Numbered from the stretch's first letter, positions 3,221-62,520 are shown. The stretch: 64,000 bases of DNA from Clostridia bacterium (GCA_017415805.1 JAFQEC010000008.1:108111-172110); one strand, 5' to 3'. The notes: a model not told the origin generated them from the letters alone. Translations and numbers: made by a program.

Positions 3221-3229
3221 GAAAAATTA

Positions 3230-3267
3230 AAAAGCAGCGCAGATGCTTTCGCATTTGCGCTGCTTTT
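3230..3267. terminator. bidirectional intrinsic terminator
   Basis: AAAAGCAGCGCA...TGCGCTGCTTTT with inner ATGC/GCAT; A-run 5' and T-run 3'. Confidence 0.7.
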
Positions 3268-3405
3268 GCGAACGAGAGGAACTGCAGTATTCGATGCAGA
3301 AGAAGTGATCTCGGCACGAGAGCTGTATGATATACTGCAAGTGCCGAGAGCGCGCCTAAAAAACACACATAAAAAAATGAAATTCGGCACGAATTTCTAC
3401 CGCAA

Positions 3406-3497: not shown

Positions 3498-4031
3498 TCA
3501 GGCCTTGCAGAATTTTTCGATGTACCCGTCGATCGCCTCGCGCACGATCTTCTCGGCGGTCTCGCGGTCGTAGAGCTCCTTGATGTCGGTCTGCTTATTC
3601 TCCAGCTGCTTATAGACCTTGAAGAAGTGCATGATTTCATCAAAGATGTGCGGCGGCAGCTCGTCGATCGAGCGAATGTTGTTGTACGTGGGATCGGAAA
3701 ACGGGATCGCAATGATTTTGTCGTCGATATGCCCGTCATCCAGCATACGCATCACGCCGATGGGATAGACGCGGATCAGCGTCATAGCCTGGATCGGCTC
3801 GGCGCAGAGCACCAGCACGTCAAGCGGGTCATTATCGTCGGCATAGGTGCGCGGAATGAAGCCGTAATTGGCAGGATAGTGCGTCGAGGTGTAGAGCACG
3901 CGGTCCAAGCGCAAAAGGCCTGTGCCCTTATCCAGCTCATACTTACAACGGCTGCCCTTCGGGATCTCGATCAGGGCGGTAAAATCGGTAGGGGTGATCT
4001 GGTGCGGATCCATGTCGTGCCAAATGTTCAT
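3498..4031 (-). CDS. ppa: inorganic pyrophosphatase (family I)
   Basis: YPANYGFIPRT..DNDPLDVLV signature, 177 aa. Confidence 0.95.
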   Translation of the reverse strand: MNIWHDMDPHQITPTDFTALIEIPKGSRCKYELDKGTGLLRLDRVLYTSTHYPANYGFIPRTYADDNDPLDVLVLCAEPIQAMTLIRVYPIGVMRMLDDGHIDDKIIAIPFSDPTYNNIRSIDELPPHIFDEIMHFFKVYKQLENKQTDIKELYDRETAEKIVREAIDGYIEKFCKA

Positions 4032-4041
4032 AGTCTTCTCC

Positions 4042-5328
4042 TTATTTTACAAATTCAAATTCAAATCCGTAGAGGTTGACGGTGTGCCCGTCGGTACAGC
4101 CCTTTTCGGTCAGCATCGCAATAATGCCGCTTTTGATGAGTGCCTTTTGGAAGTAGGCAAGCGATTCATAGTCGTCAAAATTGATGCGACCCATCAGATT
4201 TTCAACCCATTTACCTTCAACGAAGAAGGTGTTGTTCTCACGGCGCACCGTGATCTCGCCTGCATCCTCGATCTCCTGATCCTCAGTGATCTCACTCTCG
4301 AAGACCGTAAGGGGCGGCAGGTCGCGCAAGCGCTCCGACACGCGCTTGACAAGTGCGTCCAGCCCCTTGCCCGTTGCCGCCGAGACGTAGTGCAGCTCCC
4401 AGCCGTTCTCCTTGACGAAGGCCTCAAACGCGGTCACATCCACGTACGTGGGATCCAGCATGTCGCTCTTGTTCGCGACGATGATCTGCGGGCGCTCGGC
4501 CAGCACCGCGCTATAGCGCGCGAGCTCGCGGTTGATGGCACGAATGTCCTGTGCGGGGTCACGCCCCTCGGTGGCCGAGATATCCACCACGTGCAAGAGC
4601 AGCCGACAGCGCTCCACGTGGCGCAAAAACGCGTGTCCGAGCCCCGCGCCCTCTGCCGCACCCTCGATAAGGCCCGGGATGTCGGCGGCCACAAAGCCTG
4701 CCTCGCCACCCGTGCGCACCACGCCGAGATTGGGAGAGAGGGTGGTAAAGTGATACGCCGCGATCTTGGGGCGCGCCGAGCTGATGCGCGAGAGGATCGA
4801 GGATTTGCCCACGCTGGGCATACCGATAAGACCCACATCGGCCAGCATCTTCAGCTCCAGCACAAGCTCGCGCTCCTCGCCCTTGGTGCCGTTTTTGGCA
4901 AACATGGGCATCTGGCGCGTGGCGGTGGCAAATCGGCGGTTGCCCCAGCCGCCGCGTCCGCCGCGGCAGCACACAAAGGGCTCGTCATCCGACATATCCT
5001 TGATGATCTTGCCGCTTGCGGCATCGCGGATCAGCGTGCCCTGCGGCACGAGGATCTCGATATCGGCGCCGTTCGCACCGTGGAACTTTTCGCTCTGCCC
5101 GTTGCCGCCGTTCTTGGCCACGAACTTGCGGTGATCGCGGAAAAACAGCAGCGTGGTGGCTCCCTTGTCCACACGGAACACCACGTCACCGCCGTTGCCA
5201 CCGTCGCCGCCCGACGGGCCGCCGTGCGACACGTACTTCTCGCGGTGGAAGGCCACGGCTCCGTTGCCGCCGTCCCCCGCCTTTACATAGATCTTGGTTT
5301 TGTCAATGATTCGCTCGGCATCACGCAT
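4042..5328 (-). CDS. obg: GTPase Obg
   Basis: Obg fold GDGGNGAVAFHREKY, P-loop GMPSVGKS, C-terminal OCT-type domain. Confidence 0.95.
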   Translation of the reverse strand: MRDAERIIDKTKIYVKAGDGGNGAVAFHREKYVSHGGPSGGDGGNGGDVVFRVDKGATTLLFFRDHRKFVAKNGGNGQSEKFHGANGADIEILVPQGTLIRDAASGKIIKDMSDDEPFVCCRGGRGGWGNRRFATATRQMPMFAKNGTKGEERELVLELKMLADVGLIGMPSVGKSSILSRISSARPKIAAYHFTTLSPNLGVVRTGGEAGFVAADIPGLIEGAAEGAGLGHAFLRHVERCRLLLHVVDISATEGRDPAQDIRAINRELARYSAVLAERPQIIVANKSDMLDPTYVDVTAFEAFVKENGWELHYVSAATGKGLDALVKRVSERLRDLPPLTVFESEITEDQEIEDAGEITVRRENNTFFVEGKWVENLMGRINFDDYESLAYFQKALIKSGIIAMLTEKGCTDGHTVNLYGFEFEFVK

Positions 5329-6658
5329 CGGGCACCTCCTCGCCCTTCTGGCGAATGATCAGCTTGATCGGCGTGCCGCGAAATCCAAAGGTCTCACGCA
5401 GGCAGTTCTCGATAAAGCGCTGGTAGGAAAAATGGAACAGCTCCGCATTGTTGCAAAAGATCACGAAGGTGGGGGGGGCGGTGCGGATCTGCGTCATATA
5501 GTAGATCTTGAGCCGCTTGCCCTTGTCCGAGGGGGGCTGCACGCGCGTGGTCGCATCTCCCAGCACGTCGTTGAGCATGCCCGTGGAGATGCGCATTTGG
5601 GTTTGGTTGTATACATACTGAATGTGCTCAAAAATGTTGGGCACACGCTGACCCGTCTTGGCCGAAACGAAGAGCAAGGGCGCGTACTGCATATACCCCA
5701 GCGCCTCATAGACCCGCTTGGTGTACTCGTTCACGGTGCGGTTGTCCTTCTCGACGGTATCCCACTTATTCACCAGAATAATGGACGCCTTGCCCGCCTC
5801 GTGTGCGATACCCGCGATGCGCTCGTCCTGCTCGGTCACGCCCTCGTTGGCATCGACCATAATCAGGCACACGTCCGCACGCTCCACCGCCATATGGGCG
5901 CGCAGAACACTGTATTTTTCGATCTTGTCGTTGATCTTGGACTGGCGGCGAATGCCCGCCGTGTCGATGAAGGTGAACTTGCCGTACTCGTTCTCCACCA
6001 GCGTATCCACCGCATCGCGCGTCGTGCCCGCAATACTGGAGACGATCAGACGCTCACTGCCCACGAAGCGGTTGATGATGGAGGATTTGCCCGCATTGGG
6101 CTTGCCGATCACGGCGACCTTGATCGAATCGTCCTCCTCCTCGGCAAAGTCGGCGTCGGGGATGGCGGCGATCACCGCATCGAGCAGATCTCCCGTGCCC
6201 GAGCCGTGCACCGAGGAAACGGCGATGGGCTCTTGCTCGAAGCCGAGCTCGTAAAACTCATAGTATTCAAAGGGCAGCGACCCCACGCGGTCGCACTTGT
6301 TGATCGCGGGGATGATCGGCTTGCCGCTTTTTTTGAGCATCACCGCAACGTCGCGGTCGGCGGCCGTGAGGCCTGTGCGCACGTCGCAGAGAAACACGAT
6401 GACATCGGCACTCTCCACGGCGATCTCAGCCTGGAGCTTCATCTGCGAGAGGATCAGATCGTCGGTCTTGGGCTCAATACCGCCCGTGTCGATGAGGGTG
6501 AGCTTTTTGCCGCACCACTCGGTCTCGCCGTAGATGCGGTCGCGCGTCACGCCGGGGATATCCTCCACGATCGAGCGACGCTCGCCGATGAGCTTATTGA
6601 ATAACGTGCTTTTCCCCACATTGGGGCGGCCCACGATGGCCACGATTGGTTTTGACAT
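5321..6658 (-). CDS. der: ribosome biogenesis GTPase Der (EngA)
   Basis: Two tandem G domains (GRPNVGKS, GKPNAGKS) plus KH-like C-terminus. Confidence 0.95.
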   Translation of the reverse strand: MSKPIVAIVGRPNVGKSTLFNKLIGERRSIVEDIPGVTRDRIYGETEWCGKKLTLIDTGGIEPKTDDLILSQMKLQAEIAVESADVIVFLCDVRTGLTAADRDVAVMLKKSGKPIIPAINKCDRVGSLPFEYYEFYELGFEQEPIAVSSVHGSGTGDLLDAVIAAIPDADFAEEEDDSIKVAVIGKPNAGKSSIINRFVGSERLIVSSIAGTTRDAVDTLVENEYGKFTFIDTAGIRRQSKINDKIEKYSVLRAHMAVERADVCLIMVDANEGVTEQDERIAGIAHEAGKASIILVNKWDTVEKDNRTVNEYTKRVYEALGYMQYAPLLFVSAKTGQRVPNIFEHIQYVYNQTQMRISTGMLNDVLGDATTRVQPPSDKGKRLKIYYMTQIRTAPPTFVIFCNNAELFHFSYQRFIENCLRETFGFRGTPIKLIIRQKGEEVPDA

Positions 6659-6670
6659 TGTAACACCTCC

Positions 6671-7993
6671 TTACAGGGGGGTCGATTGCCCCAACAGGGC
6701 AGACACAAGAGCCGTTCCGTCTGCGGGAACGGCACGAACCGGTATGTGCAAGCGCTCGGAGAGCTCTGCGGGGGTCATACCGCACAAAAACAGATCACCC
6801 TCGGCACGCAGCATCGCGGCGGGGATGAGAAGCTCGTCCCCGAGCTCCTTGTTTGCAAGCTGCTCGGCAACGTCCTTGCCTGTGAGCAGACCTGCCACCG
6901 TGATCTCGGGACCGAAAAAGCGGTTTTCGATCACGGCAACGCGCACCGAAAGCCCCGAAACGCGGCGCTCCAGCGCGGCGGCCAGCTCCGCGAGCATATC
7001 GCCTGCGGCTTTGCCCGTAACCAGTGTCACGCGACGTTTGAAATCGGCAGGGAGCGAAATTTCGTCCAGATATTTGAGCTCGGCGTAAAACTCCTCGGTA
7101 AGCGAGCGTAGCATGCCTACGCCGTTCTCGATCTGCTCGTAGTCGCCGTAATAGTCCTCCTCGGGGATCGGAAGGCCTGCCTTGAGATAGAACTCGTCCG
7201 CACAGCAAAAGATCCGCACCCCGTGCTTGTCCACGCAAGCATCGCCAAACGCGGTGACCTTCTCGATCACGGCGCGGCACTCCTCGGGACTGAAGGGCTC
7301 CAGCGGGTACAGACCGTCACGGAATTGCGTGAGTCCCGCCGGCACCACCGACACGCTGCTCATGGCAGGGTGCAACCGCGCAAGATCCTCCATGGTGCGG
7401 GTCAGCTCCGCACCGTCGTTGATGCCGCGGCAGAGCACGATCTGGCCGCACAGGCGGATGTCCGCGGCGGCCAAACGGTCGAGGTAGGAAAGTACCTCAC
7501 CCGCGCGCTTGTTCTTCATCATTTCACAGCGCAGGACGGGATTGGTGGTGTGCACCGACACGTTCACGGGCGAGATGTGCATTTTGATGATGCGGTCAAT
7601 ATCCGCATCATGCAGATTCGTCAGCGTGATATAATTGCCGTGCAGGAAGGACAGGCGCGAATCGTCGTCCTTGAAATACAGCGAGGGGCGCAGGCCCTTG
7701 GGCAGCTGATCAATGAAGCAGAAGATGCACTTGTTGGCACAGCACTGCTTCTTATCCATCAGCGGCGTCTCAAACACAAGGCCGATGTCGTCGTACACAT
7801 CCTTTCGGATGGTAACGCTGTACGGCTTCTCCTCGCGCAGCAGCGCGAGTGTGACGGTATGCTCGGCAAGATAAAAGCGATAATCCAGCACGTCGGCAAT
7901 GGCATTGCCGTTGACCGACACCAGCACGTCGTCCGCCAAGATGCCCGCGCGCGCGGCGCGCGTATGTGGCTCGACCGCACAGATCCGAACCAT
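6671..7993 (-). CDS. PDZ + radical-SAM protein of unknown function (DUF512-like)
   Basis: ATG 7993 after AAAGGAG; PDZ-like N-terminus; CANKCIFC (Cx3Cx2C); upstream 25 codons of ORF 6671..8068 lack an RBS. Confidence 0.85.
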   Translation of the reverse strand: MVRICAVEPHTRAARAGILADDVLVSVNGNAIADVLDYRFYLAEHTVTLALLREEKPYSVTIRKDVYDDIGLVFETPLMDKKQCCANKCIFCFIDQLPKGLRPSLYFKDDDSRLSFLHGNYITLTNLHDADIDRIIKMHISPVNVSVHTTNPVLRCEMMKNKRAGEVLSYLDRLAAADIRLCGQIVLCRGINDGAELTRTMEDLARLHPAMSSVSVVPAGLTQFRDGLYPLEPFSPEECRAVIEKVTAFGDACVDKHGVRIFCCADEFYLKAGLPIPEEDYYGDYEQIENGVGMLRSLTEEFYAELKYLDEISLPADFKRRVTLVTGKAAGDMLAELAAALERRVSGLSVRVAVIENRFFGPEITVAGLLTGKDVAEQLANKELGDELLIPAAMLRAEGDLFLCGMTPAELSERLHIPVRAVPADGTALVSALLGQSTPL

Positions 7994-8030: not shown

Positions 8031-8071
8031 CCCCCGAAAACAAGAGCATTGCCCACATGCGTGGGCAACGC
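8031..8071 (-). terminator. terminator/attenuator hairpin downstream of rny, about 26 nt upstream of the DUF512 RBS
   Basis: GCGTTGCCCAC-gcat-GTGGGCAATGC then UCUUGUUUUC on the minus strand. Confidence 0.55.
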
Positions 8072-8243
8072 TCACTTTTTTGTTGTAGTAGCATTTGCGC
8101 CACCGTTTTGCAGGCGCACGCAATCAGCAAGCAATTATCTCGCCGAATAAGAACCAAGCAATTCCGAATCTCGCCTACGGCGAGAAAATGAAGTTTTCTC
8201 GGCGGCACCGCCGCCGCTTTGCTGCGCAAAAACCGAAAACTTT

Positions 8244-8315
8244 GAAGGCGCACCGGAGCCGATGCCCGAAGGCGATGTTTGCCATCGTCGAGGGCTGAGG
8301 CGAGGAGCAACGCCG
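8244..8315. repeat. intergenic hairpin repeat, copy A
   Basis: 26-nt exact match (8267-8292 = 13538-13563); aligns with 13514-13586 and 29899-29969. Confidence 0.85.
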
Positions 8316-8329
8316 AAGTGCGACGGTTA

Positions 8330-9871
8330 TTATTTGGCGTAGTCCACGGCGCGCGACTCGCGGATCAGATTCACCTTAATCTGTCCGGGGTACTTCACCT
8401 CGTCCTGGATCTTCTTGGCCATATCGCGGGCGATGAGCTTCATGCCCTCGTCGGTCACGTCCTCGGGCTTGACCATCACGCGCAGCTCGCGGCCTGCCTG
8501 GATGGCATAGGCCTTCTCCACGCCGCCAAAGCCCTTGGCGATCTCCTCAAGCTTCTCGAGGCGCTTGATGTAGTTTTCGAGATCCTCGCGGCGTGCGCCC
8601 GGGCGCGATGCCGAGATGGCATCTGCCGCCTGCACCAGAATGGCGATGACGGTCTGGGGCTCGACGTCGTTGTGATGCGCCTCAATGGCGTGGATCACAT
8701 CGCGGCTCTCCTTATACTTGCGTGCTACGTTGACACCCAGCTCCACGTGCGTGCCCTCCACGTCGTGAGGGAAGGCCTTGCCGATGTCGTGCAAGAGGCC
8801 CGCACGCTTGGCAGTTGCGGCGTCCACGCCCAGCTCCTCGGCCATGATGCCCGCAAGGAATGCGGTCTCGATCGAGTGCTTGAGCACGTTCTGGCCGTAG
8901 CTGGTACGGTAGCGCAGACGGCCGAGCAGCTTGATCAGCTCGGGGTGCAGGTTGGGGATGCCCACCTCATAGGTGGCGCGCTCGCCCGCCTGCTTGACGA
9001 CCGCCTCGACCTCGCGGCGGCTCTTTTCCACCGTCTCCTCGATGCGGGCGGGGTGGATACGGCCGTCGGAAATGAGACGCTCCAGTGTGAGGCGTGCGAC
9101 CTCGCGGCGAACGGGATCGAAGCCCGAGAGGGTGATCGCCTCGGGGGTGTCGTCAATGATCAGCTCCACACCCGTCAGGGTCTCGAGCTTTTGAATGTTG
9201 CGGCCCTCGCGGCCAATGATGCGGCCCTTCATCTCCTCACTGGGGATCTGCACCACCGAGATGGTGGATTCGGCCACGTGATCGGTGGCACAGCGCTGAA
9301 TGGCCAGCGAGAGAATGTTGCGCGCCTTGGTGTCGGCATCCTCGCGGAACTGCGTCTCCAGCTCGTCAAGGCGCTGGGCCAGCTCATGCTTGACCTCGCC
9401 CTCCACGCGCTCGATCAGCTCCTCCTTTGCCTCCTCCGCGGTCAGCCCCGCAATGCCCTCCAGCACGCGCTTGTGCTGCTCGAGCGTGGCGGTGATCTCC
9501 TCACGCAGTGCATCGTTGTCACGGATCTTCTGATCCAGGGTCTCGTTCTTGCGGTCGAGTGCCTCGGCCTTACGGTCCAGCGTTTCTTCCTTTTGGGTGA
9601 GGCGTCGCTCGGCGTGTGTAACCTCGGCACGGCGCTCCTTGATCTCGGCATCCGCCTCGTTGCGGCGGCGCAGGATCTCCTCTTTTGCTTCAAGCAGGCT
9701 CTCTTTTTTCAGCGCTTCCGCTTTTTTTGTGCTTTCGTCCAGGATACGTGCCGCCTCGGCCTTTGCCGAGCCGATGCGCTTTTGACCAAATCCGCGGCTG
9801 AAAAACCAGCCTGCGGCAACGCCGAGCACCAGAGCTGCTGCAATCAATCCAATTGCAAGTCCAATTTCCAT
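8330..9871 (-). CDS. rny: ribonuclease Y
   Basis: N-terminal TM helix, coiled coil, KH and HD domains, 513 aa. Confidence 0.95.
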
Positions 9872-10345: not shown

Positions 10346-10383
10346 GAAAAAGCGCCTTTGCGAAATTCGCAAAGGCGCTTTTT

Positions 10384-10385
<2 letters not shown>
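10346..10385. terminator. bidirectional intrinsic terminator
   Basis: AAAAAGCGCCTTTGCGAA/TTCGCAAAGGCGCTTTTTT perfect palindrome between convergent genes. Confidence 0.8.
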
Positions 10386-11376
<991 letters not shown>

Positions 11377-11387
11377 ACCGTTCTCCT

Positions 11388-12554
11388 TTATTCTGCACAA
11401 ACGGCAAGGATCACCTCTGCCGCTTTTTTGAGCTGCTCCATTGGAATATTGAGTGCGGGAAGCAAGCGCACCTTATGCTTAGCCGTCAGGCACAGCACGC
11501 CGCGCGCGATGCAGGCCTTCACCACCTCGGCGGCGGGCTTTTCGGTCTCAATGCCGATCATCAGGCCAAGACCGCTGACCGACTTCACGCCCTTTGCGTT
11601 TGCAAAGGTCTTGAACAAATACGCGCTTTTTTCCTTCACGGCATCCAACAGTGCACCGTCGATGCGCGAGAGGATGCTGTACGCACCCGCACACGCCACG
11701 GGATTTCCGCCGTAGGTCGAGCCGTGGTCGCCAAAGCCCAGCACGTTCTGTACGCGCTCGCCCAGCATCGCGGCACCGATCGGCAAGCCGCCGCCAAGTC
11801 CCTTGGCGGTGGTCACAACGTCGGGCGTAATACCGTAGTGCATATAGGCATACAGCGCGCCCGTGCGGCCGTTGCCCGTTTGCACCTCGTCCACCATAAA
11901 GACGATGTCCTCACGCGCGGCAAGCGCGGCCGCGCCCTGCACGAAGGCCTTGTCCATCACGTTCACGCCGCCCTCGCCCTGGATACACTCAATTAAAATA
12001 CCCGCAACCTTGTGGGTGGCAACGGCCTGCTCCAGCGCGGCAAGATTCCCCGGCTCTACGTGCACAAACCCGGGCGTCAGGGGCTGATAGAGCTCGTGAT
12101 AATGCTCCTGCCCCGTTGCGGCCAGCGTGGTGAGCGTGCGGCCGTGGAAGCTGTTCTTGAGCGTAATGATGGTGCTGTATTCCGCGCCCTTTTTCTCGGC
12201 GGCGTACTTGCGTGCCACCTTGATGGCACATTCGTTCGCCTCGGCACCCGAATTTGCAAAAAAGACCTTTTTAAGCCCCGTTCTGGTACATAACAGCTCG
12301 GCGAGCTTAGCGCAGGGCTCGGTATAATACAGATTCGAGGTGTGCTGCAGCAGCCCAAGCTGCTCCGTCACGGCCTTTTTCCACGTCTCATCGGCAAAGC
12401 CGAAGGCGGTCACGCCGATGCCCGAGCCAAGATCAATATATTCCTTGCCCTCGGTGTCGTACACCAGCGAGCCCGTACCGCGCACGAGCTCTACGGGAAA
12501 GCGCGCGTACGTGCCTGCAACATAGGCCCGATCCAGCTCCTGTAACGTACTCAT
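11388..12554 (-). CDS. argD: acetylornithine aminotransferase
   Basis: Class-III aminotransferase ([18 protein letters not shown]); arg operon context. Confidence 0.9.
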
Positions 12555-13426
12555 GCCCGTTCCCCCATCACCATCGTGCCTGCGCCCTCGTCGGTGAGCA
12601 GCTCCATGAGGATCGAGTGGGGCACGCGGCCGTCCATGATGATGACGTTCTTCACGCCGCGGTGCAACGCCTCAATGCAGCAATCGACCTTGGGGATCAT
12701 GCCGCCCGAGATCACGCCCTGCTCGAACAGCTCCTCGGCCTCCTCGATCGTGATCGAGGGGATGAGGGTGGTGGGGTCGTCCTTGTCGCGCAGGATCCCT
12801 GCGATGTCGGTCATCATGATCAGACGCTCCGCGCCAAGCGCGCCCGCGATAAAGGCGGCCGCGGTGTCGCCGTTGATGTTATAGGCGTTGCCCTTGCTGT
12901 CACAGCCAATGGTGGAGATCACGGGGATGTAGCCCTTCTCCAAAAGGTCGACAACGGGGTCAATATTGACCTTGGTGATCGAGCCAACGTAGCCCAATCT
13001 CTCGTCCTTCATTTTGGCCTCGATGAGGTGCGCATCCATGCCCGAAAGGCCCATGGCGGTGCCGCCCTTCATCTCCAGAAGGTTGACCAGCGACTTGTTG
13101 ACCTTGCCTGCCAGCACCATCTGCACGATGTCCACGGTCTCCTTATCGGTGACGCGCAGACCGTCCACAAACTCGGGCTTTTTGCCAAGGCGCTGCATCA
13201 GGTCATTAATCTCGGGGCCGCCGCCGTGCACCAGCACGACCTTGACACCAACGAGGTTGAGAAGGACCAAGTCCTCCATCACCTGCTGCTTGAGCTGCTC
13301 GTTGATCATGGCGTTTCCGCCGTATTTCACCACAACGATCTTGCCGTTGTAGCGCTGAATGTGCGGCAGAGCCTGCGTGAGCACCTCTGCGCGCTGTGCA
13401 TTGGAAAAATGATTGTCGATGTTCAT
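12551..13426 (-). CDS. argB: acetylglutamate kinase
   Basis: VVKYGGNAM amino-acid kinase motif; ATG 13426 after GAGAGGAAAA; 4-nt overlap with argD. Confidence 0.95.
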   Translation of the reverse strand: MNIDNHFSNAQRAEVLTQALPHIQRYNGKIVVVKYGGNAMINEQLKQQVMEDLVLLNLVGVKVVLVHGGGPEINDLMQRLGKKPEFVDGLRVTDKETVDIVQMVLAGKVNKSLVNLLEMKGGTAMGLSGMDAHLIEAKMKDERLGYVGSITKVNIDPVVDLLEKGYIPVISTIGCDSKGNAYNINGDTAAAFIAGALGAERLIMMTDIAGILRDKDDPTTLIPSITIEEAEELFEQGVISGGMIPKVDCCIEALHRGVKNVIIMDGRVPHSILMELLTDEGAGTMVMGERA

Positions 13427-13513
13427 AGTTTTCCTCTCGTTTTTGTTCTCACGGGGTTTCGTTATCGCGCCGCTTTTACTATCGATCGGCTGATCGTTCA
13501 GAAGCAAGCGAGG

Positions 13514-13586
13514 CAAGGCGCGACGCAGAAAGCAAGGCGAAGGCGATGTTTGCCATCGTCGAGCCGCTTTCCAGAAAGCAACGCCG
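13514..13586. repeat. intergenic hairpin repeat, copy B
   Basis: GAAAGC-aa-GGC-gaa-GGCGATG-tttgc-CATCGTC-ga-GCC-GCTTTC; 26-nt identity to copy A. Confidence 0.85.
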
Positions 13587-13607
13587 CATCACGCCGCCAA
13601 TCGGCGG

Positions 13608-14822
13608 TCAGGTGCGATAGTCACCATTAATTTTGACATAATCATAAGTCAGATCACAGCCCCAAGCCGTTGCGGCATGTGCACCGTCACCGATGCAGAC
13701 CTTGATCTCGATCTCCTTTTCCAGCAGGATCTGCTTGGCGATCTCCTCGGAGAATTCCACGCCCGCGCCGTTGCGGCAGACCGCGATCTCGCCCTTTGCA
13801 GAGGCAAAGGAAACGTCCACACGGTTTACGTCCACGTCCGCACCGCTGTAGCCGATGGCGCACAGCACGCGCCCCCAGTTGGCATCTGCGCCGAACATCG
13901 CGGCCTTGAGCAGGCTGGAGCAGATCACGCTTTTGGCCACCGTCTTGGCGGTTTTTTCATCGTCTGCACCCGTCACGCGGCACTCGAGCAGCTTGGTCGC
14001 GCCCTCGCCGTCGCCCGCGATCATGCGGCACAGATGCACCGTGACGGTGTTGAGGGCCTGCATAAATGCGGTGAAATCCGCGCCCTCGGCGGTGATCTCG
14101 GCGTTCCCCGCCAGTCCGTTGGCCAGAATCGTGACCATATCGTTGGTCGAGGTGTCGCCGTCCACGCTGGTCATATTAAAGGTGCTCTGAATATCGCTTT
14201 TCAGTGCCTTCCCCAGCATGCTCGCGGAAATAGCCACGTCGGTGGTGATGAAGACCAGCATGGTTGCCATATTCGGGTGGATCATGCCGCTTCCCTTGGC
14301 AATACCGCCGATACGGCAGGTCTTGCCGCCCACGGTGAACTCCACGGCGATCTCCTTTTTGACGGTATCCGTGGTCATAATGCCCTCGGCTGCGGCCTCG
14401 CCGCCGTCGCGCGAGAGCTCCTTTACCAGCTGTGGGATACCTGCGGCGATGGGCGCGATATCAAGGGGCTGACCGATCACACCCGTGGACGCCACCACCA
14501 CGTCGGTGGCGGGGATACCAAGCTCCTTGCCAAGCAGTGCACACATCTGCTCCGCGATCTCGATACCGTTTGCGTTGCAGGTGTTGGCGTTTCCGCTGTT
14601 GCAGATCACCGCCTGCGCAAAGCCGTCGGCAATGTTATTCTTGGTGACCGTCAAGGGTGCACCCTTGACCAAATTCGTGGTATATACGGCCGCCGCGGTG
14701 GCGCGCGTCTCGCTCACGATCAGTGCGATGTCGCGCTTGGTGCGGTTCTTGCGGATGCCGCAATGCACGCCGCTGGCCTTGAAGCCCTTTGCGGCGCAAA
14801 CGCCGCCCGATACTGTTTTCAT
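13608..14822 (-). CDS. argJ: bifunctional ornithine acetyltransferase / N-acetylglutamate synthase
   Basis: Autocleavage region HPNMATMLVFITTD; 404 aa. Confidence 0.95.
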   Translation of the reverse strand: MKTVSGGVCAAKGFKASGVHCGIRKNRTKRDIALIVSETRATAAAVYTTNLVKGAPLTVTKNNIADGFAQAVICNSGNANTCNANGIEIAEQMCALLGKELGIPATDVVVASTGVIGQPLDIAPIAAGIPQLVKELSRDGGEAAAEGIMTTDTVKKEIAVEFTVGGKTCRIGGIAKGSGMIHPNMATMLVFITTDVAISASMLGKALKSDIQSTFNMTSVDGDTSTNDMVTILANGLAGNAEITAEGADFTAFMQALNTVTVHLCRMIAGDGEGATKLLECRVTGADDEKTAKTVAKSVICSSLLKAAMFGADANWGRVLCAIGYSGADVDVNRVDVSFASAKGEIAVCRNGAGVEFSEEIAKQILLEKEIEIKVCIGDGAHAATAWGCDLTYDYVKINGDYRT

Positions 14823-28088: not shown

Positions 28089-29750
28089 TCAGCGATTGAT
28101 GATCGCGCCCTTGTCGGCCGAGCTGACCATTGCGGCGTAGCGCTTGAGGTAACCGCTGATGTTCTCTTTTTTCTTGATGGGCATCTCGGCGCGGCGCTTC
28201 GCCATCTCCTCGTCCGAGACCTTGAGTTCGATCTTATACGCGGGAATATTGATCGAAATGATATCGCCGTCCTTGACGTAGGCGATCGGGCCGCCGCTCA
28301 CCGCCTCGGGCGAGACATGCCCGATGGATGCGCCGCGCGTTGCACCCGAGAAGCGTCCGTCGGTGATCAGCGCCACGCTGCCACCAAGCCCCATGCCCTG
28401 AATGGCCGAGGTGGGGTTGAGCATCTCGCGCATGCCGGGGCCGCCTGCGGGGCCCTCGTAGCGGATCACCACCACGTCGCCCGCGACGATCTTGCCACCG
28501 TGGATCGCGTCAATGGCGGCCTCCTCGCTCTCAAAGACCTTGGCAGGGCCCTCGTGCACCAGCATCTCGGGCGCAACCGCCGAGCGCTTGACCACGCAGC
28601 CGTCGGGCGCAAGGTTGCCCTTGAGCACCGCAATACCGCCCGTGCGGCTGTAGGGGTTCTCGGGGGTGCGGATCACCTCGGGGTCGCGGTTGGTCGCGCT
28701 TGCAATATTCTCACCCATGGTCTTGCCCGTGCAGGTCATGACCGAGGTTTCGATCAGGCCCATATCCGCCAGCTGCTTCAATACAGCGTACACGCCGCCC
28801 GCCTCGTTGAGATCCTCCATATAGGTGGGGCCTGCGGGGGCGAGGTGACAGAAGTTGGGGGTGCGCTCACTGATGGCGTTGACCTCCTCAAGGTCAAACT
28901 CCACGCCGCACTCGTTGGCGATGGCGGGGAGATGGAGCATGCTGTTGGTGGAGCAGCCCAGTGCCATATCGGCGGTGATCGCGTTGCGGATGGTGGCCGC
29001 GGTCATGATGTCGCGCGGACGGATGTTCCGACGCACCAGATCCATGACCTGCATGCCCGCATGCTTGGCAAGCTGAATGCGTGCCGAATAGGCCGCGGGG
29101 ATGGTGCCGTTGCCCGCAAGACCCATGCCCATTGCCTCGGTGAGGCAGTTCATGGAGTTGGCGGTGTACATGCCCGAGCACGAGCCGCAGGTGGGGCAGG
29201 TCTTGCACTCAAATTCTTCCAGCTTCTCGCCGTCGATCTTGCCCGCGTGGTACGCGCCGACCGCCTCGAACATGGAGGACAGGCTGGTCTTTTTGCCGCC
29301 CACGCGACCGGCCAGCATCGGGCCGCCGCTGACGAACACCGTCGGGATATTCAGACGTGCCGCCGCCATCAAAAGCCCCGGCACATTCTTGTCGCAGTTG
29401 GGAATCATCACAAGGCCGTCAAAGCCGTGTGCGCGCACCATCGCCTCGGTGGAGTCGGCGATCAGGTCGCGCGTGACCAGCGAATATTTCATGCCCTCAT
29501 GCCCCATGGCGATGCCGTCGCAGACCGCAATCGCGGGGAACAGAATGGGCGTGCCGCCCGCCATGGCCACGCCGAGCTTGACCGCATCGGCGATCTTGTC
29601 GAGATTCATGTGCCCGGGCACGATCTCGTTGTACGAGCACACCACGCCGATCAGCGGCTTTTGCAGCTCCTCGGACGTGAGGCCCAGCGCGTTATAGAGT
29701 GAACGGTGCGGTGCGTTGTCGCAGCCGTTTACAATGGTATCCTTAATCAT
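28089..29750 (-). CDS. ilvD: dihydroxy-acid dehydratase
   Basis: IlvD/Edd family, [10 protein letters not shown] motif, 553 aa. Confidence 0.95.
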
Positions 29751-29898
29751 ATTTTACCTCCTTGAAAGGCACTGTATGGGGCGCAGAAGGCTTCCCTTCT
29801 GCGCCTTTACAATAACTTTCGTCTATCTGTTCCGACAACCGAAAAGGCAAATACTCCCTTCCCGGCTACCGATAATTTGTTCAGAAAAGCGAGTAAGA

Positions 29899-29969
29899 CA
29901 AGGCGTACCGGAGAAAGCAAGGCGCAGGCGTAGTAACCTACGTCAAGCCGCTTTCGAGGAACAACGCCG
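29899..29969. repeat. intergenic hairpin repeat, copy C
   Basis: GAAAGC-aa-GGC-gca-GGCGTAG-taac-CTACGTC-aa-GCC-GCTTTC; same frame as copy B with a compensated inner stem. Confidence 0.8.
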
Positions 29970-29992
29970 TATTACGAAGCTTTTTGGACAAA

Positions 29993-31051
<1,059 letters not shown>

Positions 31052-33260: not shown

Positions 33261-34919
33261 TCAGTCCTTCAACATAATGTTCACGGCGCTAACCAGAGCC
33301 TTGACCGACGAGACGATGATATCGCTGTCCACGCCCGTTCCCCAATAGGTCTTGCCGTCGTGCACGATGCTCACGTAGGATGCCGCCTTGGAGTCGGTCT
33401 TGCTTTCCAGTGCATGCTGGGTGTAGGTGTCCAGCGCGTAGTCGATGCCAAGCGCCTTCTTTACCGCGTTGCTCACGGCGTCCAGACGGCCGTTACCGAA
33501 GGAGACGTGCTCGCGCACCCCGTCGCCGTAGCGCAGCGACACGTTGGCGCGGATGCCGTCCTGCTCGTCGGTATACACCGCGCGGACAACGTCAAATTCG
33601 TCGGTGCGGTTGACGAAATCGCGCAGGAAGATCTCCAGGACCTCGGCGGGCGGCAGCTCGCGGTGTCCGTGGTCCGAAATGCTCTTGACGTGGTAGCCGA
33701 AGACCTCGCGCATCTTCGGGGGCAACACATAGTTGAACTGCGTTTCCATGATATAACCGATGCCGCCCTTGCCCGACTGCGAGTTGATGCGGATCACGTC
33801 GGCCTCGTACTGTCTGCCCACGTCGGTGGGATCGATGGGCAGATAGGGCACGGTCCAGCGACAATCGTGCGCCTCGCGCCACTTCATGCCCTTGGCGATG
33901 GCGTCCTGATGCGAGCCGCTGAAGGCCGCAAACACCAGCTGACCGCTGTAGGGCTGACGCTCGTACACGTGCATGCGCGTGACGCGCTCATAGACCTCGG
34001 TGATGGCGGGCAGATCCGAGAGATCGAGCCCCGGGTCAATGCCCTGCGAGTACATGTTCAGCGCGAGCGTGACGATATCCACGTTGCCCGTGCGCTCGCC
34101 GTTGCCAAAGAGCGTCCCCTCGATGCGGTCGCCGCCTGCAAGCAAGCCCATCTCGCTGTCGGCCACGGCACAGCCGCGGTCGTTGTGCGGATGCAACGAG
34201 ATCACAAGGCTCTCGCGGTTCTTCAAATTCTTGCACATATACTCGACCTGATTGGCGTAGACGTGCGGCATCGAATGCGAGACCGTGACAGGCAGATTGA
34301 TGATGAGCTTATCCTCGGGTGTGGGCTGCAAAATGTCAATGACCTCATTGCAGATCTCGGCGGCAAACTCGGGCTCGGTGCCTGTGAAGCTCTCGGGCGA
34401 ATACTCAAACGAAACGTGCCCCTCGGCCTTGGCGCGGTAATCGCGGCACAGCCGTGCGCCGAAGGTAGCGATGTCGATGATCTCCTGCTTGCTGCGGTGG
34501 AACACCTGCTCGCGCTGGGCCACCGACGTGGAGTTGTACAGGTGCACGATGGCGTGCTTTGCGCCGCGGATGGCCTCAAAGGTCTTGGCGATGATATGCT
34601 CGCGCGACTGGGTCAGCACCTGAATGGTGACGTCGTCGGGGATCAGACCCTGCTCGATGATGGTGCGGCAGAACTCGTATTCGGTCTCCGAGGCGGCCGG
34701 GAAGCCCACCTCGATCTCCTTAAAGCCGATGCGGCACAGCAGCTTGAAAAATTCCAGCTTTTCCTCAAGGCTCATCGGAATGATGAGTGCCTGATTGCCG
34801 TCACGCAGATCCACACTGCACCAAATGGGCGGTCGGTCGATCGCGGTGCGCTTGACCCAGTCCATGCTCACCCCGTTGGGCGCAAAGAACTGCTTTTCGT
34901 ACTTGTTACAGTTTTTCAT
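33261..34919 (-). CDS. leuA: 2-isopropylmalate synthase (long form)
   Basis: HMGL-like DLRDGNQ motif, 552 aa with C-terminal regulatory domain. Confidence 0.95.
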   Translation of the reverse strand: MKNCNKYEKQFFAPNGVSMDWVKRTAIDRPPIWCSVDLRDGNQALIIPMSLEEKLEFFKLLCRIGFKEIEVGFPAASETEYEFCRTIIEQGLIPDDVTIQVLTQSREHIIAKTFEAIRGAKHAIVHLYNSTSVAQREQVFHRSKQEIIDIATFGARLCRDYRAKAEGHVSFEYSPESFTGTEPEFAAEICNEVIDILQPTPEDKLIINLPVTVSHSMPHVYANQVEYMCKNLKNRESLVISLHPHNDRGCAVADSEMGLLAGGDRIEGTLFGNGERTGNVDIVTLALNMYSQGIDPGLDLSDLPAITEVYERVTRMHVYERQPYSGQLVFAAFSGSHQDAIAKGMKWREAHDCRWTVPYLPIDPTDVGRQYEADVIRINSQSGKGGIGYIMETQFNYVLPPKMREVFGYHVKSISDHGHRELPPAEVLEIFLRDFVNRTDEFDVVRAVYTDEQDGIRANVSLRYGDGVREHVSFGNGRLDAVSNAVKKALGIDYALDTYTQHALESKTDSKAASYVSIVHDGKTYWGTGVDSDIIVSSVKALVSAVNIMLKD

Positions 34920-34949: not shown

Positions 34950-35215
34950 AAATAAAAAACGCCCCTTTTACGCAACATCATTTGCATAAAAGAGACGAAG
35001 AAAATCTCCGCGGTACCACTCTTTCTTGGCGATCGCTCGCCCACTCAATTCTGTCTGCAACAGAAGCCTCTGTAACGGGAGAACCCGTCCAATTCTACTC
35101 GGCGCGCGGCCTTTTGGTTGGAAGCTCAGGGACGAGTTTCACCGCATCCGACACACCGTCTCGCACCGACCGACGGCTCTCTGTAGTGCATTTGCAGCTA
35201 TAGTTCCCTTCACAG
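34950..35215 (-). promoter_or_regulatory. T-box riboswitch leader, Leu specifier (CUC)
   Basis: Minus strand: AGAGAG...GGTGCGAGA stem-I elements; GAAACUCG specifier (CUC = 35134-35136); T-box AGAGTGGTACCGCGGAG (35008-35024); terminator CGUCUCUUUU/AAAAGGGGCG + U6 (34954-34997). Confidence 0.85.
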
Positions 35216-35225
35216 CTGATAAGTC

Positions 35226-46072: not shown

Positions 46073-46633
46073 ATGATCGATCTGGCATTTGTTCCGCAGC
46101 CGATCCCCTGTGCGCGCGATGCGCAAAGCCGAGCCGCGCATGCGCGGCTCGCGGCGCTCCTGCATGCGCACGGAATCTGTGCAACGGCCGTCGAGCGCAC
46201 GCCGTCGGGGCGCCCCTTTCCGGTCGGGCTTCCGCACGTGGATTTCAGCATCTCGCACACACAAGGGCTGTCTGTCGTGGCACTGTGCACCGTGCCTGAA
46301 GGCGAAAACGCGCCCCGCATCGGCGTTGACGTAGAGCACATCGGTTCACTCGCGTCATCGCACATCATGCGCCTTGCAGAGCGTTTTTTTGCCCCCTGCG
46401 AGCGTGCGTTCCTTGAGACGCATAAGGATGATGTTCTCCACGCATTCGCCACGGTATTCACAAGAAAAGAGGCCCTTGCAAAATGCCGCGGCGACGGGCT
46501 ATCACACCATCTGCGCACAACCGACACGATGCAAGAGGGCTTTGAGCAAGCCGAGCATGTGCGCTTTTCTACCCCCGATGCACCTGCGGGATATTGTATT
46601 ACACTTTGCACGCAGGCCCAAAGCTCGCTCTGA
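46073..46633 (+). CDS. 4'-phosphopantetheinyl transferase (Sfp type)
   Basis: GRPF..FSISHT, IGVDVEHI, FTRKEALAK motifs. Confidence 0.85.
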   Translation: MIDLAFVPQPIPCARDAQSRAAHARLAALLHAHGICATAVERTPSGRPFPVGLPHVDFSISHTQGLSVVALCTVPEGENAPRIGVDVEHIGSLASSHIMRLAERFFAPCERAFLETHKDDVLHAFATVFTRKEALAKCRGDGLSHHLRTTDTMQEGFEQAEHVRFSTPDAPAGYCITLCTQAQSSL

Positions 46634-62390: not shown

Positions 62391-62520
62391 GAAAAAGGCA
62401 GGAAAAGCGTGCACAACCTGTGTCGTTGCAAACTCTGTCGCCCGGTTTGAACGGACATACTCCGCGAAAATTCCCCGCTTGCGCGGCAACCTCTCGCTTC
62501 ATCGCATATCAGACCCGTCT

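Follow-up and report, generated by a model that had tools for sequence, protein, structure and literature searches.

A dispersed hairpin element in three operon spacers of a Clostridia genome, a member of a cross-phylum family with REP/REPIN/MITE-type behaviour

Why should three spacers within the minus-strand operons of one bacterium hold the same long, imperfect hairpin? The question arises from a 64,000-nucleotide stretch of the metagenome-assembled genome of an uncultured Clostridia bacterium (GCA_017415805.1, JAFQEC010000008.1:108111-172110; hereafter the window), in which a preliminary description, made from the sequence alone, noted three hairpin copies (A, B, and C). Follow-up analysis points to a dispersed, non-autonomous palindromic element of about 120 nucleotides (nt), whose behaviour is that of repetitive extragenic palindromic (REP) sequences, their hairpin-forming doublets (REPINs), and miniature inverted-repeat transposable elements (MITEs); a mechanism for its spread is proposed below. 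The element is multicopy, intergenic, covarying, sharply bounded, tandem-forming, and strain-variable, and it occurs in many phyla and in one phage. On balance, we favour a mobile or amplifying hairpin element over a gene-specific regulator.

The repeat itself is beyond dispute. The 26-mer CGAAGGCGATGTTTGCCATCGTCGAG, described at first as identical in copies A and B, is present exactly at 8267-8292 and 13538-13563 and nowhere else in the window, even with three mismatches allowed; chance predicts zero occurrences. Chance would supply 0.07 instances of the shared frame AAGGCG-N45-65-CAACGCCG; the window has three, all on the + strand, in keeping with the common orientation first noted. Alignment of the three copies gives a mean column identity of 77%. 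The early estimate of some 72 nt describes the core well (8245-8315 in copy A, with its counterparts in B and C) and falls short of the full extent: matches to a covariance model, R1, cover about 118 nt per copy at 62.7-72.6 bits. The 64-kb window holds no further copies, the next-best match scoring 14 bits. That match (46297-46397, minus strand), tried as a fourth copy, lacks the fold, appears by eye to be coding (frame unchecked), and was taken to be a chance similarity. A second sample of the same species preserves copy C, with one substitution.

With a genome of 58% G+C, hairpins are common, and the covariance model indeed makes many 6-14 bit matches on ordinary ones. Chance similarity among ordinary GC-rich hairpins or intrinsic terminators is nevertheless refuted by the exact 26-mer, the frame count, the model scores (62-73 bits for the copies), and covariation across the family. 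The genuine terminators of this genome also look different. The classical bidirectional examples at 10347-10386, which closes the argCJBDF operon, and at 3229-3268 each consist of an A-run, a perfect GC hairpin, and a T-run; no T-run follows the element on either strand, and identification as an intrinsic terminator was rejected.

Folding reproduces the single extended hairpin seen at the outset, with compensated inner, middle, and outer stems, in all three copies. Copies A and B share the inner stem GGCGAUG/CAUCGUC, for which C has GGCGUAG/CUACGUC; in the middle and outer stems, A reads GCC..GCCC/GGGC..GGC, and B and C read GAAAGC..GGC/GCC..GCUUUC. Every copy has a single pair in its inner stem that departs from Watson-Crick pairing, and on the + strand this pair is G.U. 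Predicted energies are -45.8 kcal/mol for copy A and -46.8 kcal/mol for copy C. Throughout the family, copies folded singly give this rod too, their modules following one order and their energies ranging from -38 to -98 kcal/mol. Its base is formed by the variable outer stem or stems, P0; a 5' AA bulge; stem P1, GGCG/CGCC; and a 3' (C)AA bulge. The middle comprises a stem of 3-4 base pairs (bp); a purine- or GA-rich internal loop; the variable stem P2; and a closing C-G pair. The apex consists of a 3x2 loop, GNA opposite RA; stem P3, GGCGUAC/GUACGUC, with its fixed G.U; and a loop of 4-9 nt. Conservation resides in the interior and apex, and the termini vary. The rod folds as a unit: the left and right halves alone give -16.5 and -15.4 kcal/mol, about a quarter each of the -62.0 kcal/mol for the whole.

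Several other identities were considered and set aside. A K-turn, group II intron domain V, a sarcin-ricin loop, and a CsrA site each fail by inspection at a defining position. A small open reading frame (ORF) within the element, also judged by inspection, is open in copy B and has a stop in copy A. The apical loop TTGACA, considered as a -35 box, has no -10 partner, and this loop is not conserved in Clostridia.

The preliminary description saw a local, three-copy repeat. A pattern scan together with the covariance model reveals instead a cross-phylum family. Contigs representing one genome per species were scanned for CGGCGTTG-N12-18-CTNGACG-N10-16-CGCCTNCG, which gave at least 120 loci (designated by L numbers); the family counts below rest on the matches listed. 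About 50 of the 120 loci listed carry the same element in unrelated organisms, and about half are chance matches in GC-rich coding DNA. Among the matches listed, carriers are metagenome-assembled genomes (MAGs) of Clostridia, Eubacteriales, and Oscillospiraceae, and one Selenomonadales MAG (Negativicutes); Desulfobacteraceae, Desulfarculaceae, Syntrophobacteraceae, and Geobacteraceae (Desulfobacterota); and Myxococcota, Planctomycetota/Phycisphaerae, Binatia, many Acidobacteriota, and several Gammaproteobacteria. Because the pattern fixed certain positions, their invariance is partly an artefact of the search. Features that the pattern left free are genuinely conserved, among them the 5' CAAGGCG; a module in the outer part of many copies, GAGA...AGAURCAAGG / CGCCGYAGAU...AUC; and the architecture itself. 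The family is also broader than the pattern, since a Clostridia relative of the window's organism contains a diverged member (L153:16027-16146, minus strand; 22.9 bits) in which GAGCGUAC...GUACGUGAU replaces the canonical core.

A covariance-model scan, as proposed in the preliminary description, detects at least 67 copies at E <= 1e-6 in the collected loci, some of them absent from the seed. In a MAFFT alignment, RNAalifold finds 26 consensus pairs, 16 of which show compensatory changes. In the R1 alignment, 90.2% of pair cells hold standard pairs, compared with 67.1% after shuffling and 25-41% with slid partners; the alignment was fitted to the model, which inflates the paired fraction, but the slid and shuffled controls agree with the independent single-sequence folds. 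Changes on both sides occur in 18 of the 26 pairs, and the covariation score is 0.486 versus 0.116. The initial supposition that the structure is under selection is thereby borne out, with strong covariation across about 65 family copies.

The family reaches viruses as well. A strict pattern returned eight matches in IMG/VR, all of them chance and without the fold; a second, more specific pattern identified one true phage contig, UViG_3300037424_002862 (L211), which encodes a P22-like portal and capsid and carries two copies (750-870 and 5429-5549). One copy directly precedes the capsid gene and separates it from an uncharacterised ORF. This phage is a possible vehicle for horizontal spread.

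Was the family known? At the gathering threshold, Rfam 15 assigns the element to no family in the window and 18 loci, reporting only T-box, S10 leader, tmRNA, tRNA, and ZTP matches elsewhere; in E-value mode, copy A and a proteobacterial copy (L073) give only noise, at 13-20 bits. To this extent the early statement that no known family could be recognised stands. The element had, however, been noticed before. Aklujkar 2009 (BMC Microbiol 9:109, PMC2700814) listed 24 unnamed elements of Geobacter metallireducens, Gmet_R1001-R1024, as group 1 of the "predicted regulatory short RNAs", and recorded the same element type in G. sulfurreducens (GSU0160.1), G. uraniireducens, and Desulfotalea. These elements were described as intergenic and multicopy, about 112 nt long, with the central palindrome GRCGTAGCGCTGCTACGCC; they were published as a supplement alignment, without structure, name, or function. 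Their neighbours are unrelated (hemE, nuo, dapL, nifD, speA, fliK, and others), some lie inside operons (dapAB/dapL), and some are clustered in mixed orientation (PMC2700814).

Several comparisons link the two sets. The palindrome GRCGTAGCGCTGCTACGCC is the reverse complement of P3 plus loop (GGCGTAGCAGCGCTACGYC), and GGCGTAGCAGCGCTACGYC is identical in the Geomobilimonas locus L040. Copy C carries GGCGTAGTAACCTACGTC in the P3 frame, where copies A and B have the compensated GATG/CATC. An nhmmer profile of alignment A2, which includes the window copies, matches 11 of 12 published Gmet elements on the reverse strand, with E values from 2e-11 to 0.01. Lengths are similar (112-116 nt for the Gmet elements versus 117-119 nt for the window copies), and the reverse complements of the Gmet elements fold into the same rod. 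Judged by sequence and predicted fold, then, the window copies belong to the same family as Gmet_R1001-R1024 and GSU0160.1. They differ in P0, P2, and loop sequences, which makes them a Clostridia subfamily: new members of a family previously known only as an unnamed Geobacter supplement alignment. A full-text literature search with the core sequence gave no match, and a literature search gave no second paper mentioning the Gmet elements. Since the 2009 paper offers no structure, name, or function and no other paper in the library searched mentions these elements, the family had been noticed without being characterised; its spread far beyond the Geobacteraceae appears to be unreported.

How does the element behave within genomes? 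Six near-identical copies in the Desulfobacteraceae, four in genome CAZWEV01 (L017, L020, L023, and L071) and two in other MAGs (L009 and L052), are about 127 bp long with sharp ends, ATTCCA...TGGAAT, in unrelated flanks. None has a target-site duplication; the flanking di- and tetranucleotides all differ. Tandem arrays recur with a period of 124-128 bp (L001; L068, with three units; and L083) or 172 bp (L115). Locus L083 has copies at 6972-7088 and 7098-7214, together with an internally deleted copy on the reverse strand at about 730-790, in which the 5' flank AAAAATCAAAGCCCTGCA is fused directly to GGAGCAACGCCGC; it shows that array members decay by deletion between short repeats. Here the initial comparison with REPs and bacterial interspersed mosaic elements (BIMEs) proved apt as to behaviour: multicopy, dispersed, hairpin-forming, and without target duplication.

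Copy number also differs between strains. Locus L001, from the same species, encodes an identical ArgJ, and its argJ-argB spacer is 305 bp with two copies, compared with 181 bp and one copy in the window. Within L001:1690-1932, the element and its 5' flank are duplicated in tandem as a 124-bp unit with the 10-bp near-repeat ATCGCGCCGC/ATCACGCCGC at its borders, the extra copy having about four substitutions. The sequence to the left of copy B in the window, ATCGCGCCGCTTTTACTATCGATCGG (13464-13489), is the same as that joining the two tandem copies in L001. It is also similar to GCGCCGCTT, which forms the 3' outer arm in other Clostridia copies, and is probably what remains (a 3' stub) of a lost neighbouring copy.

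These observations bear on whether the element regulates the operons that contain it. Pfam assignments confirm that the copies lie, as first proposed, in spacers of minus-strand operons, flanked by co-directional genes: rny and a DUF512 radical-SAM gene (A), argJ and argB (B), and ilvC and ilvD (C). In the mRNA sense, every window copy ends at the stop codon of the preceding gene. The right end of copy A overlaps the rny stop codon (8330-8332); copy B abuts that of argJ (13608-13610); and the outer stem of copy C, AATTTGTTCAGAAAAGC / GCTTTTTGGACAAATT, extends to that of ilvC (29993-29995). Such placement invites the idea of a cis-acting mRNA element selected for operon regulation, through differential stability or RNase processing between the flanking genes. 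The mRNA-sense strand of the 81-nt core does fold, at -26 to -28 kcal/mol in the window copies; the phage copy next to the capsid gene is suggestive; and REPs are known to stabilise upstream mRNA (Di Nocera 2013, PMC3733652).

Comparison of arg loci argues otherwise. Among 80 metagenomic loci (857 kb; ArgJ 59-80% identical), the covariance model finds no strong copy of the element; the only member is the weak, diverged L153, about 7 kb from argJ and outside the argJ-argB junction. That junction is typically 10-25 bp, room for a ribosome-binding site only, in the 18 closest relatives read, and longer in two. Because the junction is so short in relatives and the element essentially absent there, copy B is an insertion into a normally tight junction rather than an ancestral arg-operon regulator. 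For the rny/DUF512 and ilvC/ilvD junctions, synteny is not conserved in the ArgJ-related loci, none of which contains both genes of either pair; the window's RNase Y has no exact match among recorded proteins. Across the family, immediate flanks are oriented at random (13 minus-minus, 11 plus-plus, 10 divergent, and 9 convergent), and coding within 3 kb is mostly on the same strand at 20 loci and on the opposite strand at 23. With random gene orientation, half of the copies would present the complementary sequence. The neighbours are heterogeneous, functionally unrelated housekeeping genes, and a generic hairpin barrier needs no sequence-specific core shared across phyla. An operon-specific role in stability, processing, or regulation, among the roles first entertained, is accordingly improbable for an element that is multicopy, strain-variable, randomly oriented, and essentially absent from 80 arg loci. 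A secondary, at most generic, hairpin effect on mRNA is compatible with the reading favoured here.

A different setting is seen in L095, from a MAG labelled Actinomycetes bacterium OFTM219 (40% G+C), with copies within 3542-4174 and at 4836-4955. Both ends of its tmRNA gene (3658-4053, minus strand) are abutted by element copies, mutually inverted, and a third copy is 800 bp away. The arrangement may be coincidental, or insertion may favour sites at the edges of structured RNA genes.

Which strand, and which nucleic acid, does the structure serve? For 46 of 54 copies, folding predicts greater stability for the + form (GGCGUAC..., with purine-rich loops and the G.U) than for the - form, the mean difference being 8 kcal/mol. 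The preliminary description had argued for an RNA strand from the inner-stem pair, G.U on the + strand and A-C in the mRNA sense. The argument holds for the invariant P3 pair, kept in 64 of 66 distinct family copies, and fails for the variable stems: with the invariant pair excluded, the modelled stems contain 73 G.U and 54 A.C pairs (p = 0.11). As G.U is not significantly more frequent than A.C, the variable stems change as those of a DNA palindrome would, with folding open to both strands. There is also a bias with respect to base composition. The + form lies on the locally C-rich strand at 30-32 loci versus 12-13 (sign test p 0.007-0.035, by threshold), a modest GC-skew bias based on 8-kb windows; all three window copies are on the C-rich strand, the window having a skew of -0.037 and its genes lying on the G-rich strand. 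Unbiased gene orientation combined with a C-rich-strand bias hints at a bias of replication strand. Replication-orientation bias is a trait of single-stranded DNA (ssDNA) transposons of the IS200/IS605 type and of REPs. In G. metallireducens, the published coordinates place 15 of the 24 copies, in their published orientation, on the presumed leading strand, provided that the replication origin is near position 1 and the terminus near 2.0 Mb.

The same data bring forward the main rival, a family of independently transcribed, structured small RNA (sRNA) genes, multiplied by duplication, in which the + form rod would bind or sequester a conserved protein. Such genes would account for a cross-phylum core with purine-rich internal loops and an invariant G.U, for the better folding of the + strand, and for orientation independent of neighbours, as befits an autonomous unit; and the Geobacter copies were annotated as short RNAs (PMC2700814). 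Yet no promoter-like or terminator-like signals accompany the window copies, an absence that also tells against the antisense RNA suggested at first. Operon transcripts here contain the complement of the + form, since the window copies all run against their operons; an RNA of the + form would have to come from antisense transcription. Moreover, the six Desulfobacteraceae copies share no conserved flank outside the hairpin; tandem arrays, internally deleted copies, and strain differences in copy number typify repeats rather than RNA genes; and the variable stems lack a significant preference for G.U over A.C. An sRNA gene family is therefore unlikely, although we rank it somewhat above a cis-acting role at the operon level.

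Mobility or amplification as DNA, the preferred reading, suggests the following model. The element would spread within a genome and, now and then, from one genome to another, by way of an intermediate in which it is a single-stranded hairpin. A protein acting in trans would handle this extruded hairpin and would recognise it by its asymmetric core, made up of the two bulges (AA and CAA), the G.T pair, and the GNA/RA loop. The best-precedented candidate for this partner is an HUH/Y1 nuclease resembling the REP-associated tyrosine transposases (RAYTs), with a universal host factor that binds DNA or RNA hairpins equally possible; the specific HUH/ssDNA route we consider rather unlikely. An element inserted just past a stop codon would be co-transcribed, and in mRNA it would act at most as a generic stable hairpin, for example as a 3'-exonuclease barrier or a processing site.

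Several points weigh against this model. The search for a transposase or nuclease partner was negative: with an IS200 TnpA as query, itself distant from RAYTs, tblastn gave a best E value of 1.8 in the 8-kb locus flanks (about 1 Mb) and the 64-kb window. This search is weak evidence either way, because single-copy RAYTs rarely fall within 8-kb flanks. No pair of filled and empty sites was captured at nucleotide resolution, and the difference between L001 and the window can be explained by slippage on the 10-bp microhomology. BLAST found no match to copy C or the type-1 copy among PLSDB plasmids, and none to copy C among GenBank phages. The skew bias is modest. Finally, a cross-phylum core is atypical for REPs and REPINs, so that a functional RNA, or binding by a universal host factor, fits this feature equally well, and the conserved loops, rich in purines, have the look of RNA tertiary motifs.

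The element is a variant of the REP/REPIN/MITE class, differing in that it is a single 120-nt rod whose interior is conserved across phyla. Like REP/BIME and REPIN-RAYT systems of Enterobacteria and Pseudomonas, it is intergenic, multicopy, hairpin-forming, clustered, and non-coding, often just downstream of genes; like REPs and REPINs it makes no target duplications and has mismatches or G.T pairs in its stems, and REPINs too are hairpins of about 100 nt. A REPIN, however, is a dimer of two inverted, self-palindromic REPs of 20-40 nt separated by a spacer, whereas the element is one long hairpin in which no internal REP unit can be recognised. It also lacks the terminal GTAG/CGTC tag architecture, and its core spans phyla where those of REPs and REPINs are lineage-specific. 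The AAGGCG...CGCCGCATC base resembles the Escherichia coli REP stem, GGATAAGGCG...CGCCGCATCC; a BLAST search of 5,426 E. coli genomes revealed no similarity to the type-1 copy.

MITEs and the Correia, ERIC, RUP, BOX, and RPE repeats offer a second comparison: they too are intergenic, 100-170 bp long, and co-transcribed with their neighbours, and they form long hairpins. MITEs have terminal inverted repeats that match a parent insertion sequence (IS), as well as target-site duplications; the element is conserved inside and its termini vary. Although its ends are inverted (ATTCCA...TGGAAT), the lack of target-site duplication at the six Desulfobacteraceae copies speaks against classification as a MITE. 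Integron attC sites and IS200/IS605 hairpins likewise have imperfect, covarying stems, in which the enzyme reads conserved bulges and mismatches on one strand rather than the stem sequence. The element differs from IS200/IS605 hairpins in standing alone rather than at an IS end, and no integrase or TnpA was found nearby. Inspection of alignment A2 shows none of the R''/R' pairing of attC sites (RYYYAAC/GTTRRRY): the basal stem, GGCG/CGCC, has the bulges AA and CAA, and the AAC finds no GTT partner. The neighbours of the element are housekeeping operons, not cassette boundaries.

A further comparison concerns the GTAG/CGTC-tagged REPs of Di Nocera et al. 2013 (PMC3733652), units of 20-40 bp that have stems of 8-9 bp, a terminal tag left unpaired, and a CCA tail. 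Their superfamilies, like the element, span phyla, lie mostly between unidirectional or convergent genes, and may act as RNA hairpins; the CGTC repeats "apparently lack a dedicated transposase" (PMC3733652). Both CGTC and GTAG/GTAC occur in P3, but base-paired within the apical stem of a 120-nt rod. A classical REP has one stem of 8-13 bp and an unpaired tag in a unit of 20-40 bp; the element, at about 120 nt, has at least four helices, with CGTC and GTAG paired, and is not of this type.

What would set the family apart is its reach. Dispersed hairpin repeats (REP, REPIN, MITE) are normally lineage-specific. The same asymmetric core across phyla and in a phage implies a shared recognition partner, and either horizontal spread or very old ancestry. 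It is tempting, though as a tentative proposal that we doubt more than we credit, to regard the copies as one hairpin superfamily, with its asymmetric core in at least eight phyla or classes and in one phage, which would be either mobile ssDNA with a dedicated enzyme or a rod-shaped RNA acting on a universal host protein. If so, the Geobacter elements of 2009 and the gut Clostridia copies would be a single entity, either ancient or spreading horizontally, with a reach like that of REP-RAYT systems and a different structure. Missing from Rfam and from repeat catalogues, such copies are left unannotated or, in Geobacter (the only annotation checked), labelled as regulatory RNA. The element sits inside essential biosynthetic operons (arg, ilv, and dap) and lengthens tight gene junctions ten-fold. 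Cultured carriers are available: G. metallireducens and G. sulfurreducens, together with Geomobilimonas luticola and Geobacter argillaceus, the two cultured Geobacteraceae recovered in the scan.

Coordinates of the element copies, their parts, and the flanking genes in the window
Feature	Position	Strand	Basis or remark
Copy A, whole element (rny/DUF512 spacer)	8221-8338	+	Covariance model R1, 62.7 bits, E 1e-17
Copy A, core as first reported	8245-8315	+	Frame AAGGCG...CAACGCCG; pattern count
Copy A, apical stem P3	8271-8289	+	Includes the G.U pair
Copy B, whole element (argJ/argB spacer)	13491-13609	+	R1, 66.9 bits
Copy B, core	13515-13586	+	Frame AAGGCG...CAACGCCG; pattern count
Copy B, left flank ATCGCGCCGCTTTTACTATCGATCGG	13464-13489	+	Equals junction between L001 tandem copies
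ATCACGCCGC, 10-bp near-repeat of ATCGCGCCGC (13464-13473)	13588-13597	+	Microhomology bounding the unit duplicated in L001
Copy C, whole element (ilvC/ilvD spacer)	29876-29992	+	R1, 72.6 bits
Copy C, core	29900-29969	+	Frame AAGGCG...CAACGCCG; pattern count
rny (RNase Y), upstream of copy A in mRNA sense	8330-9871	-	Pfam RNase_Y_N, KH, HD
argJ, upstream of copy B in mRNA sense	13608-14822	-	Pfam ArgJ
argB, other flank of copy B	12551-13426	-	Pfam AA_kinase
ilvC, upstream of copy C in mRNA sense	29993-31009	-	Pfam KARI_N/C
ilvD, other flank of copy C	28089-29750	-	Pfam ILVD_EDD

Other structures are found near the copies. The remainder of the rny/DUF512 spacer, 8061-8215, contains several short GC hairpins, noted in the preliminary description, and in addition a + strand hairpin with a T-run at 8061-8075. 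None of these matches the element model; they may be element remnants or independent signals. Between copy C and the ilvD ribosome-binding site, at 29780-29805, the minus-strand sense forms a perfect 11-bp hairpin, GGCGCAGAAGG-GAAG-CCTTCTGCGCC, with no U-tract behind it and unrelated to the element.

Two known leaders are encoded on the minus strand of the window. An S10-Clostridia ribosomal protein leader occupies 62435-62511 (46.2 bits) and supports the assignment of the window to Clostridia. A T-box leader at 34988-35222 (125.8 bits) precedes a 552-amino-acid gene, 33261-34919, which heads the ilv/leu cluster; copy C lies further downstream in the same cluster.

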